The position numbers and the translations under genes were made by a program. The notes below the pieces were generated by a model. That model was not told the DNA's origin. It searched no databases and worked only from the letters and a program-made list of their open reading frames with translations. Of a DNA stretch of 64,000 nt, positions 4,727-24,660 are shown piece after piece. The stretch is from the NCBI GenBank assembly GCA_964016885.1, contig OZ024743.1, positions 157,852,001 to 157,916,000 on the forward strand. The letters run 5' to 3'. Positions within the stretch are counted from its first letter, which is position 1; each line of letters begins with the position of its first letter. The DNA is from Eledone cirrhosa. Lineage: Eukaryota.

Positions 4727-4786
4727 TCTTTAGTAGTAAACGTAATGAAGGAGTAACCATTCGTCCTTGTATTATTATATTACCCT

Positions 4787-5172
4787 GGGGCGGTGGATTG
4801 GCAGTATCGGTAGAGAGTCGGACACCATGCTTTGAAGTATAGTGTCACGTCCCTTTATGATCTGAGTTCAAATCCCGCCGAGGTTGCCTTTCATCCTTAC
4901 GGGGTCGATAAAATAAAGTACCAGTAATGTACTGGGTAATTGCTGGCCTTGTGCCTAAAATAGAAACAATTATTATATTACCCTTGCGGTGGATTGGCAG
5001 TATCGGTAGAGGGTCGGACGCCATGCTTTGCAGCACAATTACGTCACTTTACGGACTGAGTTCAAATCTCGCCGAGGTTAACTTTGCCTTTCATCCTTAC
5101 GGGGTCGATAAAATAAAGTACCAGTAATGCACTGGGTAATTGCTGGCCTTGTGCCAAAAGTAGAAACAATTA
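4787..5172 (+). mobile_element. Two head-to-tail full-length tRNA-SINE copies (4787-4972, 4986-5172)
   Basis: A-box-like tggcagtatcgg, B box gagttcaaatcc/ctc, shared core and tail. Confidence 0.9.
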
Positions 5173-5290
5173 TTATATTACACTCTGTCTAGCTCTACAC
5201 CTCGATACTGACGTGAACCTAAACATCGAGTGCTCACCCGGGTGAACCTACAGTAACTTCGCGTTACACTCCCTGGATATACGTGTGTGT

Positions 5291-9162: not shown

Positions 9163-9477
9163 TTATGAAAATAAACCAAAGAAGCCTTCAATACATCAAA
9201 AGTCTTTATTAGCAACAATGTATGTACACTCCATATTCTTCTGTGTTTTTGGCTTGTATTGGCCGATAGTGCTTCTTATAGCTTTAATTGCCCTGATGAG
9301 TCCTTAATAGGACGAAACATTGTTGGCTAATAAAGACTTTTGATGTATTGAATGCTTCTTTGGTTTATTTTCATAATTCTTCGGCTCTGTTTAATTACAT
9401 TGAGCTATACCTTTACTGTCATTTCTATAATACGAAGAGGGTGTTTAACTCCAACACACTCTAGTATTTTAATTCGT
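9162..9477 (+). mobile_element. HHR element with a 5' inverted copy of its own post-ribozyme segment, in (TA)n
   Basis: 9162-9220 is the reverse complement of 9318-9377; ~100 bp tail follows; TA runs on both sides. Confidence 0.85.
9290..9327 (+). ncRNA. Canonical minimal type I hammerhead ribozyme
   Basis: GCC-CUGAUGA-GUCC UUAAUA GGAC-GAAAC-AUU-GUU-GGC; stem I extends further (cuuua/uaaag). Confidence 0.9.
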
Positions 9478-20705: not shown

Positions 20706-20751
<46 letters not shown>

Positions 20752-20758
<7 letters not shown>

Positions 20759-21180
20759 CATTATGAAGAGAGAAGAAACATTAGATATAATTAATAATAA
20801 GATATATCATACCTAAACTCCTTCTTTACTCCTCGACTACGTAGTTTCGTGGAATATAATGCAAAATATCTCGCGTCCTACGGACGTGTTTTGAAACTCT
20901 TAATGAGGTATCCTCTTGATAAGTCGGCAGACCTCACAAAAATTCTATATCTCTGTGATGTAGTGTTTTTGCATAATATGCCACGAAACTACGTAGTCGA
21001 GGAGTAAAGAAGGAGTTTAGGTATGATATATCTTATTATTAATTATATCTAATGTTTCTTCTCTCTTCATAATGTATTATATAGCTCTGATACTGAATCA
21101 ATCTAATCCATTCGGATTATTTTGTCCCAGGTATTCATAGAGTAACATCGGTTGAGGTTGGCACCACTAATTCAAAGATA
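20752..21180 (+). mobile_element. Foldback HHR insert in (TA)n: arms 20752-20866 / 20966-21082 plus ~100 bp tail
   Basis: Near-perfect inverted arms, TA runs on both sides. Confidence 0.85.
20911..21003 (+). ncRNA. Type I HHR motif, core decayed by two transitions
   Basis: UCCUC-UUGAUAA-GUcGGCA...UGCCAC-GAAAC-UACGUA-GUC-GAGGA; palindromic stem III ACUACGUAGU. Confidence 0.75.
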
Positions 21181-21237
21181 TATATGGATATATTCATGAA
21201 TATATAGTTGTCCGCATGTATCTGTGTGTTTCTTTAT

Positions 21238-21278
<41 letters not shown>

Positions 21279-21279
21279 T

Positions 21280-21371
<92 letters not shown>

Positions 21372-21374
<3 letters not shown>

Positions 21375-22826
21375 GTGAAAAATAAAAGTTACGGGCGAAA
21401 GAGAGGAGTATCCGTCGTCAGTTGTCTACGAGGAATCATGGGTATTTCTTCGCGTTAGAGACAATATACCTCAGCCTATAGCGAAACAATAACTAAAATA
21501 AGTTATTGGGATAAAAGAAGGCGGGGGAGAGAGAAAAACTTGTAAACAGACACGAAGGGTGAAGCAAGGTATTAGGAAAAATATCAAGTCAACAACTCGT
21601 TTCGAACATAAGAACGGGCGAATTTTGACGAGAGAGAAAAAAGACACGTCTTAGCCGTAGCAGTGTTAGCGAGAAAAGAGGCTGCGTACAATGGTGGACG
21701 AGGGAGGAAGTGAGCTAGCGCGGAGAGAGGATGACTAATAGAGAGGGAGTGAGTGAAAGTTATACATACGATTATGTATTTCTTCTGCAAGCTTCTTCAT
21801 GTGAAATCGTGTGTTGAAACCGATATTGTTGTATTTGATGTTGATCGTGTTGCCAATATTGACAATAGAAACACACGCACCATATATTTTTCAATTCAGC
21901 TTTATCTTTATTATTCGTTATTCATTCGTTTGTCAAATTTCTTTCGTCACACATTCTGGGACCTCTTCTATGACTATCTGTTGTGTGCCTCCTCTTTTTT
22001 CTTGATCTTAATCTTGTCTTTGTTTTGTTGTGCGTTTTTTGTGTTTCGTATCTGCGCATCTTTTGTGCCTATGTCTTCGATTGTGTCAGTGTTTTTGTAT
22101 TTGCCATATCTATGTGTTTTATGTTTTTTTATCGTTTGCTGTTTTGCTGTTTGAGTCTTTTCTCTCTCTATTCTGTCTTCAGTCGTTAAGTGAGGATAGG
22201 ATCATTATTTCTAGGTTATCTATTGAGCCCTTATGTTTTAGTTTTGCATGTTTTTATAGCACTGATGAGCTTTTCTCCTCCTTAAGTTCTCGCCAACGTT
22301 CCTTTAATCTCTAAAATATAGTATAGGCTGTCTCCTATGTATGTAGTTTTCTTGTTACGGCATCATCCCTCTGTACATCTCCCATAGACTAGGTTTCTTG
22401 ATTTTCAGTTTATCTGTGGGCTTATCTTACAGACTACACAGTTTCTATCAGTACAGGGGGTTTTCCTAAAGGAGTATGCCCTACTGATCCGGGGTTTTAT
22501 GGTAGCTCCTGGTTTTTTTACTACTTTAATCCAAAGATTCATTTTGTCTAAAGCTCATCTAAAAGGATACGCTAGTTCGCCTCTAGAGTAGCTTCGACGA
22601 ATGTGGCAGTCTGGTATTTTTAGTTGTCATACAATAAGTTCGATTCCTCTATCTTTTTCTTAGTTTTTTTTCTATTCTATTCCATGATTTACGCCTGTAT
22701 AATGCACAAATCCCATTCGTATCATCTCCATAATAGTTTGGAATTTAGCCATGGCTCCGTATATATCCGTATGTGGTTCGCAGCTGAGAGAAAAGAGTAC
22801 TCATACCGGAGTAGGATTTTATTAAT
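21372..22826 (-). mobile_element. 5'-truncated Penelope-like element with C-terminal GIY-YIG endonuclease (coding relic ~22170-22800), flanked by (TA)n
   Basis: Minus frames give LYRRKSWNR, FVEAT..GELA, IKVVKKPG, PCTDRNCVVC, SRNLVY, TYIG, RLKE and KHAKLKH; stops and frameshifts present. Confidence 0.75.
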
Positions 22827-23117
22827 ATATATATATATATATGTAAACGGAAAAAATGAAACGACAATTCATTTCCCACTCTTAGTACGGCTGTTACTTA
22901 AATATAAGTATGTATCCGTACATACATATATGTATACAGACGTACAGTAGTATGTATATAAATATATATATATACATACATGCACACATATATATATGTA
23001 CATATGGATTGACCGAACATTTATTATAATGCTCGGTGTGTTTGTAAACAAACATCCCGTATTAAGCCGTAGTGTCTAGCAACCATCGTTGCTCGTTTGT
23101 TCAACACTGACAAAGGA

Positions 23118-23160
23118 ACGCTGTACTAGTTTCAAGCTTATTAGCTATCGTCAGCAACGT
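23118..23160 (-). ncRNA. Minimal type I HHR, intact core
   Basis: ACGUUG-CUGACGA-U-AGCU AAUA AGCU-U-GAAAC-UA-GUA-CAGCGU. Confidence 0.88.
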
Positions 23161-23468
23161 ATACCTTCCTGCCAGATGATTGTCGATATATATATGTACA
23201 TATATATATATGTGTACATGTATGTATATATATATACATACTACTGTACGTCTGTATACATATATGTATGTACGTATACATACTTATATTTAAGTAACAG
23301 CCGTACTAAGAGTGGGAAATGAAATTTCGTTTCATTTTTTCCGTTTATCGTTTTCGGTGCACCCGACCGATTAACCCACTCGATATACAAATTGGGCTAC
23401 TCAGCCGTTAATATGCATAAGGAAAGTATATACTTTCAGACGTTCAATCATCTAGCAGGAAGGTATAG

Positions 23469-23507
23469 GTTGCTGACGATAGCCAATAAGCTTGAAACTA
23501 GTACAGC
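23469..23507 (+). ncRNA. Minimal type I HHR, intact core
   Basis: GUUG-CUGACGA-U-AGC CAAUAA GCU-U-GAAAC-UA-GUA-CAGC; palindromic stem III ACUAGU. Confidence 0.88.
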
Positions 23508-23714
23508 GTTCCTTTGTCAGTGTTGAACAAACGAGCAACGATGGTTGCTAGACACTACGGTTTAATACGGGATGTTTGTTTACAAACACACCGAGCATTA
23601 TAATAAATGTTCGGTGAATCCATACGTACATATATATATATGTGTGTGCATGTATGTATATATACATACATACTACTGTACGTCTGTATACATATATGTA
23701 TGTACGTATACATA

Positions 23715-23761
<47 letters not shown>

Positions 23762-23764
<3 letters not shown>

Positions 23765-24204
23765 AAAGTTTTATATAAAATTGTTGGGTTACAACAAGTA
23801 AATATTTTATAACTGATATAAAGCACTCGACAAGTTTTGGAGTAGATATACGATATTAAACAAATGGAAACTATATTTATAAAACCATATTTATTTCATT
23901 ATAAATATTTCGGGGATACCATATTAAAAATATGGCATGCCTTCTTCAGATAAAATACAATATATAAACAGTTCTATAAATAATTTTGACGTACCATAAA
24001 TATTGACCAACCGTTATGTAAGAAGCTGGTTTTCTTACATAACGGTTGGTCAATATTTATGGTACGTCAAAATTATTTATAGAATTGTTTATATATTGTA
24101 TTTTATCTGAAGAAGGCATGCCATATTTTTAATATGGTATCCCCGAAATATGTATAATGAAATAAATATGGTTTTATAAATATAGTTTCCATTTGTTTAA
24201 TATC

Positions 24205-24209
<5 letters not shown>
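23762..24209. mobile_element. Foldback insert in (TA)n: ~178 bp arms (23847-24024 / 24032-24209), 7 nt loop, one-sided tail
   Basis: About 2 mismatches between arms. Confidence 0.9.
24101..24160 (+). ncRNA. Type I HHR motif (mirror copy on minus at ~23896-23955)
   Basis: CUGAAGA(24107-24113), stem II AUGCCAUAUU/AAUAUGGUAU, GAAAUAU-GUA; stem I is weak and AU-rich. Confidence 0.7.
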
Positions 24210-24239
<30 letters not shown>

Positions 24240-24241
<2 letters not shown>

Positions 24242-24660
24242 GAGAGAGAATAAGAAATTAGAAAGTTTAGATGATAAAGTCCTTTATTGATAAGGGCGTG
24301 ATACATATTTCAAGGACGACATTGGCTACGCAATTCAGCGTAGAAGCTATTGTCATGATCTCATCAGAGAACGTTACATAATAAAGTTACAATCAAGGAG
24401 GTAATCCAAAATTGAAGTGAAAAGGGAACGAACAAACAGTGATGATGGGAACGGGCATTCGATTAATGAACACTGCTGTTTGTCCGTTTCCTTGTAACTT
24501 CAATTTTGGATTACTTCCAATTGTGTAGCTAATGTCGTCCTCGAAATATGTATAACGTCCCTATCAATAAAGGACTTTATCATCTGACCTTTCTATTTCC
24601 TTATTCTGTAACTACTCCGCCACTCAGTTCTTGAATTGAATTACAGCAGTGTTTTACAAT
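24240..24660. mobile_element. Diverged foldback HHR insert between TA runs; right arm internally deleted
   Basis: 24248-24335 inverts to 24519-24608 and 24397-24440 inverts to 24476-24518. Confidence 0.8.
24296..24375 (-). ncRNA. Type I HHR motif with long stem II
   Basis: ACGUUcu-CUGAUGA(24367-24361)-GA..AUGACA..CUACGC/GCGUAG..UGUCGU..UU-GAAAUAU-GUA-U(C/A)ACG. Confidence 0.75.

Follow-up and report, generated by a model that had tools for sequence, protein, structure and literature searches.

The window analysed here (the whole 64,000-nt stretch of Eledone cirrhosa DNA) contains, between two (TA)n tracts, what is very probably (about 0.9) an insertion of a non-LTR retrozyme mobilised by a Penelope-like element (PLE). 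At sequence level, the element has the properties by which metazoan non-LTR retrozymes are defined in the available parts of the literature, and it bears PLE insertion marks as well. We further favour, with reasonable confidence, the view that a PLE enzyme wrote this high-copy hammerhead ribozyme (HHR) repeat into DNA by copying a circular RNA of 422-432 nt. That two strand-displacing RTs of a dimeric PLE roll round the same ribozyme-made circle, priming at two fixed sites that flank a hairpin, is a tentative extension, to which we give somewhat less than even weight.

The window locus

Self-BLAST and alignment to a doubled unit gave a unit length of 432 nt at this locus, bearing out an earlier sequence-only reading that an HHR monomer of about this size is present in two copies (Table 1). 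Positions 23192-23292 recur at 23622-23724 with 94% identity, and the sense arm, 535 nt long, amounts to 1.24 units, that is, more than one, as had been claimed. The alignment of the inverted arm starts at 23445 and proceeds uninterrupted beyond the end of the sense arm (23720-24) into 23290-23347, which is the course that had been described for it; the start of the arm, placed by that reading ~30 nt before the HHR, lies 28 nt ahead of the CUGA core. Its two aligned parts are 94% and 91% identical to the sense arm, and the E values of the arm alignments (6e-124 and 1e-64) exclude chance. Both arms span the cleavage site, and unit positions are counted from 23504, the first base past the predicted cut. 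In run X1, one of four contig sets that carry no information on expression, strand or circles, 55 contigs have loose ends running into (TA)n behind 23348. The two arms have 0 minor alleles in common over 213 sites and show 6 differences. Taken alone, the window locus is weak evidence and adds no haplotype support for a circle; it is an ordinary, aged member of its family.

Table 1. Features of the two-armed insertion (window positions; unit positions where stated)
Feature	Position	Strand	Basis
(TA)n target, left flank	22826..22842	.	sequence
Inverted arm, 0.78 unit, unit 374 to 276, long 'A' end	22844..23182	-	alignment
PLE-type tail, unit 219-276, only on outer end of inverted arm	22844..22901	-	
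Type I hammerhead, family-majority sequence, stem pairs all intact; predicted cut between 23124/23123	23114..23170	-	
Head-to-head junction, few filler bases	23183..23189	.	sequence
Sense arm, 1.24 units, unit 119 to 218 of next pass, short 'B' end	23190..23721	+	
TA/CATA-rich block, pass one; B site = 3' edge, 23289	23190..23289	+	
Internal copy of 59-nt tail; hairpin ~23315-23342; A site 23348	23290..23348	+	
Type I hammerhead: core 23473-23479, GAAA 23494-23497, GTA 23501-23503, palindromic minimal stem III; two stem pairs broken	23457..23513	+	
TA/CATA-rich block, pass two, stops at B site	23611..23721	+	
(TA)n target, right flank	23722..23761	.	sequence

CTGACGA cores were found at 23473(+) and 23154(-), with GAAA, C-TA-G and GTA all present and cleavage predicted after 23503. 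Both cores are intact, as had been noted, with the qualification that the sense copy has lost a stem I pair at G23468 and a stem II pair at C23484; neither defect occurs in the inverted copy. An Rfam gathering scan of the whole window gave 0 matches, and the basis of the HHR call is therefore motif and pairing. The minimal, palindromic stem III lets two copies pair over 6 bp (-6.8 kcal/mol), and such a stem is the dimeric HHR design in the part of PMC4209133 available to us. The core is intact in 43 of 51 family copies. At the base of stem II the family has a U.U followed by a 4-bp stem, and the G10.1-C11.1 pair, which the same source portion describes as highly conserved in PLE HHRs, is absent; judging from this non-canonical base, the family HHR may cut poorly. 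The pair bears on activity and is not included in the retrozyme definition, as far as the available text of the sources goes. Minimum free energy folds of the isolated HHRs contained no hammerhead fold and were no better than shuffles. The circular unit fold had a z of -7.9, inflated by the TA block, and a z of -2.9 with the TA block removed.

The region 20750-24650 of the window comprises five PLE-type insertions in series, each bounded by (TA)n: a palindrome at 20756-~21177, an old PLE remnant, the HHR element itself, and palindromes at 23762-24205 and 24240-24650. In all of these palindromes one arm extends ~45-95 nt beyond the other, and two of them have HHR-like cores, at 24107(+)/23949(-) and at 24367(-). 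A further compact HHR-like motif with a canonical stem II is located at 9293 (+). The interval 4771-5181 holds 2.1 copies of a 200-nt unit, which we take to resemble a tRNA-derived SINE.

Family copies, end sites and pairing

The 25-mer just past the cut site has 8,498 exact matches in the genome, against 0 for a reversed control pattern. The unit (422-432 nt across the family, 39% GC, which is low) is dispersed, has a high copy number and shows no protein coding capacity. A DNA search with the unit returned 1,394 candidates, the best 40 of which were scored and gave 30 loci at 95-100%. Because these loci had been selected for crossing the unit junction, two position-ordered samples were taken. 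Sample 1 consists of 59 loci lying in the leading 50 Mb of contig C1 (95 arms, 4 of them dropped as edge-cut or local duplicates), and sample 2 of 57 loci, mostly from 50-125 Mb, picked by a variant 34-mer (110 arms, 9 dropped as edge-cut or belonging to the satellite L217-218; some segmental duplicates, such as L192-194, were retained). All 192 arms used (91 and 101) were thus selected for carrying the first bases of the unit. In sample 1, 52 of 91 arms are longer than one unit and 14 longer than two. The 60-nt tail was an uninformative DNA query that returned no candidates. Contigs of runs X4 and X6, labelled organisms B and C, contain near-identical pieces of the unit.

Two fixed positions separated by 59 nt account for the 3' ends of 155 of the 192 arms: 77 arms end at site A (unit position 277; 39 and 38 in samples 1 and 2) and 78 at site B (218, with BLAST over-runs to 221; 36 and 42). 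The remaining 37 end elsewhere (16 and 21). A strict TA-flank test was passed by 37/39 A ends and 25/36 B ends of sample 1. The sites show TAT microhomology of 3-5 nt, and one of them is situated 59 nt outside the TA/CATA block. Arms are arranged head-to-head in 62 pairs, against 4 tail-to-tail neighbours, in the two samples combined. Among these 62 pairs, 39 are A+B (19 and 20), none is A+A or B+B, and 23 have an untyped end (9 and 14); hence every pair with both ends typed, 39/39, has one A and one B (binomial p 2e-6 in sample 1).

The window locus is such an A+B pair, and the overrun of its inverted arm is therefore the PLE tail: these 59 nt are a fixed feature of the family, lying between two RT start sites. 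In the available part of PMC11167929, the RT of a PLE initiates at either boundary of the tail, elongates both strands and is predicted to act as a dimer, and a tail on one end of inverted pLTRs is described in portions of PMC3846280 and PMC8557442. The sequence-only reading had taken the arms for different circular permutations of one monomer. They are indeed out of phase, but the phase is mostly not a permutation, given that the tail is fixed family-wide. Its suggestion that the TA/CATA repeats anneal to the target does not hold as the main rule, since arms end at two exact sites and few of the other ends lie inside the block. The (TA)n flanks make any target-site duplication illegible. The strict one-of-each pairing and the private-haplotype test described below are absent from the portions of the related papers at hand.

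Coding PLEs and related elements

An adjacent element at ~21376-22758 (-) is a degenerate, 5'-truncated PLE with RT thumb, Cys motif, GIY-YIG and an HHR-like core at 22182; it had 2,494 first-look candidates with best relatives at ~80%, and none of its 6 frames matched Pfam. By eye, it is an older relative of the young coding family described below. It was rejected as part of the element, its relatives being 67-86% identical and containing 0 unit matches in 11 loci. Also rejected was the idea of an autonomous PLE with an RT + GIY-YIG ORF between pLTRs: units join unit to unit, and the adjacent remnant is a separate, older family. The sequence-only reading would have been refuted by copies continuing into a PLE ORF. 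None was seen to do so among the longest frames listed in 89 loci from outside sample 2. These long frames belong to neighbours or simple repeats, as judged from the two viewed, and the two PLE ORFs viewed, from loci other than L118, are separate insertions beyond (TA)n.

The young coding PLE family, to which one of these two ORFs belongs, had 41,054 first-look candidates, and the best 146 were scored at 96-100% aa. Open frames reach 1,261 aa, with RT, Cys-rich and GIY-YIG motifs recognised by eye and a canonical HHR of its own. Its copies terminate in (TA)n at either of two positions separated by 58-60 nt and located at the ORF start (27 A, 21 B, 3 run-on and 2 other ends in 38 loci), and by eye 10 of 12 opposite-strand pairs are A+B. 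TAT|CG is the reading at 3 of the 4 end sites of the retrozyme unit and this PLE together. The family is a candidate partner enzyme for the unit, not a proven one, because the tails lack sequence similarity: neither tail nor HHR of the young PLE resembled the unit in 30 loci, and 11 loci of its older relatives gave no unit match. On two neighbouring ORFs, Pfam gave a weak RVT_1 in 1/2 and a PDB search nothing useful, so the label 'PLE, Neptune-like' is a provisional one based on motifs read by eye. Open PLE frames of ~1,240 aa, arranged as pLTR-ORF-pLTR with an inverted arm, were observed at L163 (2452-6171) and L164 (2853-6566) and belong to this young family of very high copy number. At L122 (2-1777), a second, distinct PLE-like ORF family (592 aa open) has inserted into a (TA)n that also holds a unit pair.

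In the available parts of Frangieh 2024 (PMC11167929), Craig 2021 (PMC8557442) and Arkhipova 2013 (PMC3846280), EN+ PLEs resemble the Eledone unit in 5' truncation, partial tandems, an adjacent inverted copy, a tail at one end only, an HHR upstream of the RT start sites and AT-rich or (TA)n targets. In contrast to them, the unit is devoid of an ORF and has a tail of 59 rather than 30-40 nt, and one-of-each pairing, counted here, is represented there by a tail called optional or often at one end. Chlamys MRC1 (PMC8557442, same portion) is likewise an ORF-less PLE derivative with multicopy head-to-tail insertions, but elements of this type resemble their autonomous family at the 3' end, whereas the Eledone unit has no match to the one coding family compared. 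Metazoan non-LTR retrozymes, in the accessible text of Cervera and de la Pena 2020 (PMC7229834) and of Li, Clavereau and Pollet (2026), share with the unit non-coding tandem units of 150-450 nt, low GC, one type I HHR per unit with a minimal palindromic stem III, thousands of copies and PLEs in the same genome. Unlike them, the Eledone family shows head-to-head two-armed insertions, two fixed ends and (TA)n targeting, and its stem II lacks G10.1-C11.1. The word 'inverted' has 0 occurrences in PMC7229834, as have 'ribozyme' and 'retrozyme' in PMC13282606, and no description of two-armed insertions was found in the available part of Li et al. 2026 (10.64898/2026.07.22.740005). Literature searches, with most subscription journals outside their coverage, turned up no publication dealing with two-armed insertion of retrozymes or with retrozymes of cephalopods.

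A repeat of purely DNA-level origin, such as a satellite, a MITE or a fold-back duplication that never passed through RNA, would account for the palindromic look, and local duplication and near-perfect palindromes (L115, L116) do occur. Such an origin is nevertheless highly improbable in view of the fixed, asymmetric 3' ends, the random 5' ends and the differently phased starts of the arms, together with the retained HHR cores, the dispersal over many contigs in (TA)n and the same geometry as in the coding PLE. DNA-level duplication is thus disfavoured as the origin and true as a secondary process.

The template of the insertions

Matches to the unit continue exactly across the cleavage site, with 10 more upstream bases, in 7,234 of the 8,498 cases, so that the junction crossing on which the sequence-only reading relied is common to the family, contrary to that reading's other refuting condition, copies that never cross; the loss would be close to what mutation gives. 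The cleavage site is crossed by 83/91 arms in sample 1 and 83/101 in sample 2. The 5' ends are distributed all round the unit (Rayleigh p 0.34 in sample 1, 0.036 in sample 2); 6 of 192 lie within 6 nt of the cleavage site (1/91 and 5/101), where 5.3 were expected. A 5'-end pile-up at unit 398-406 in sample 1 (10/91) was not replicated in sample 2 (3/101). A cleaved monomer copied once, which could yield at most 277 nt, is excluded by this run-through and by the lack of 5' ends piling up at the site. Junction crossing, put forward as the strongest local evidence for a circular or concatemeric template, does show a template longer than one cleaved monomer. It is no proof of a circle, because run-through of its own HHR is seen in the coding PLE as well.

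R2-type RTs are known to make end-to-end jumps. If the RT, on reaching the 5' end of a cleaved linear monomer, repeatedly jumped to the 3' end of that monomer or of a sister, a circle would be mimicked and a monomer bottleneck explained with no ligation. We regard this as quite improbable: jumps should leave stops and extra bases, whereas so few 5' ends stop at the cut site and the junctions are base-exact in 85% of the 8,498, roughly what mutation alone would leave.

Six-site haplotypes agree in 111/117 tandem comparisons and 84/95 between inverted arms, against 4,234/7,692 between loci (permutation p 0.0002). Both arms are fixed for a rare allele at 6 of 7,771 sites, compared with 3 of 260,108 in the cross-locus set (34 pairs, leaving out duplicates and composite loci). 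Derived alleles were private in 319 cases, common to all passes of a locus in 117 and common to only some passes in 72. The 72 count against a circle; many of them sit in L077, L115 and the composite L080. Shared alleles include 9 A>G and 2 T>C, a check for scars of A-to-I editing.

The best case for a circle is L226, a very young insertion with arms of 3.7 and 5.0 units. Six of its seven full units are identical, and a two-allele pattern of this locus has 8 matches in the genome, all 8 inside L226 and on both arms. This implies that both arms arose by repeated reading of a single monomer as their immediate source; alternatively, the assembly may lack a homogeneous source array. Against a circle stand the HHR without G10.1-C11.1, the absence of tail or HHR sequence common to the unit and the candidate PLE, and the arrays L077 and L115. 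In these long arrays two haplotypes alternate and the end units are recombinant, and the pattern of L077 is matched only twice in the genome, each time within L077. They are products of duplication after insertion, that is, local growth; array length is for this reason not evidence of rolling, and we rejected it as such for both loci.

The same two-site priming by a PLE could also have used an uncleaved linear multimer from a tandem source locus, with the HHR weak or idle and local expansion renewing the arrays. This we judge on balance unlikely, while recognising what speaks for it: the local expansion just described, an old satellite-like array (L217-L218) of more than 20 heterogeneous units of the family, the non-canonical stem II base, and 5' ends without a pile-up at the cut site. 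Moreover, the in vitro work in the available part of PMC11167929 found that HHR cleavage could be dispensed with and that the main substrate was RNA left unprocessed. A multimer would, however, require for L226 a source of at least five identical units with its haplotype, and none exists in the assembly. Rare alleles fixed across both arms also argue against it, as does the contrast between source arrays, mostly 2-6% heterogeneous, and the young insertions L099 and L106, with 0-1 differences. Concerning the circle itself, the accessible portions of the literature report, against it, cleavage in 1/9 Xenopus dimers (Li et al. 2026, 10.64898/2026.07.22.740005) and, in its favour, circles formed by related retrozymes in coral, mussel and axolotl (PMC7229834).

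Under the circular-template reading that we favour, multi-unit loci would be transcribed, the HHRs would cut as dimers through the palindromic stem III, and a host ligase would close the monomer into a circle. A PLE protein dimer would then nick (TA)n on either strand, and the resulting 3' ends would pair over 3-5 nt of UAU and prime at site A and site B. Each RT would travel a variable distance round the template, and the two cDNAs would join at the centre of the insertion. Some arrays would later enlarge by unequal exchange. Since arrays grow after insertion, their length alone misleads.

Circular templates for retrozymes and PLEs have been proposed (PMC4209133, PMC7229834), including the step from circle to genome, of which no demonstration was found in the available portions of these papers, and two-site initiation has been shown in vitro for one PLE (PMC11167929, available part). 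The papers, to the extent accessible, do not join the two ideas. A template of 422 nt, two exactly defined start sites, (TA)n as the target and an intact, young candidate enzyme come together in this one genome, which makes the proposal directly testable. If it is true, an animal circular RNA has left a record of its rolling-circle retrotransposition in the genome, and rolling on one circle would explain the PLE tail and the inverted pLTRs as a single reaction.
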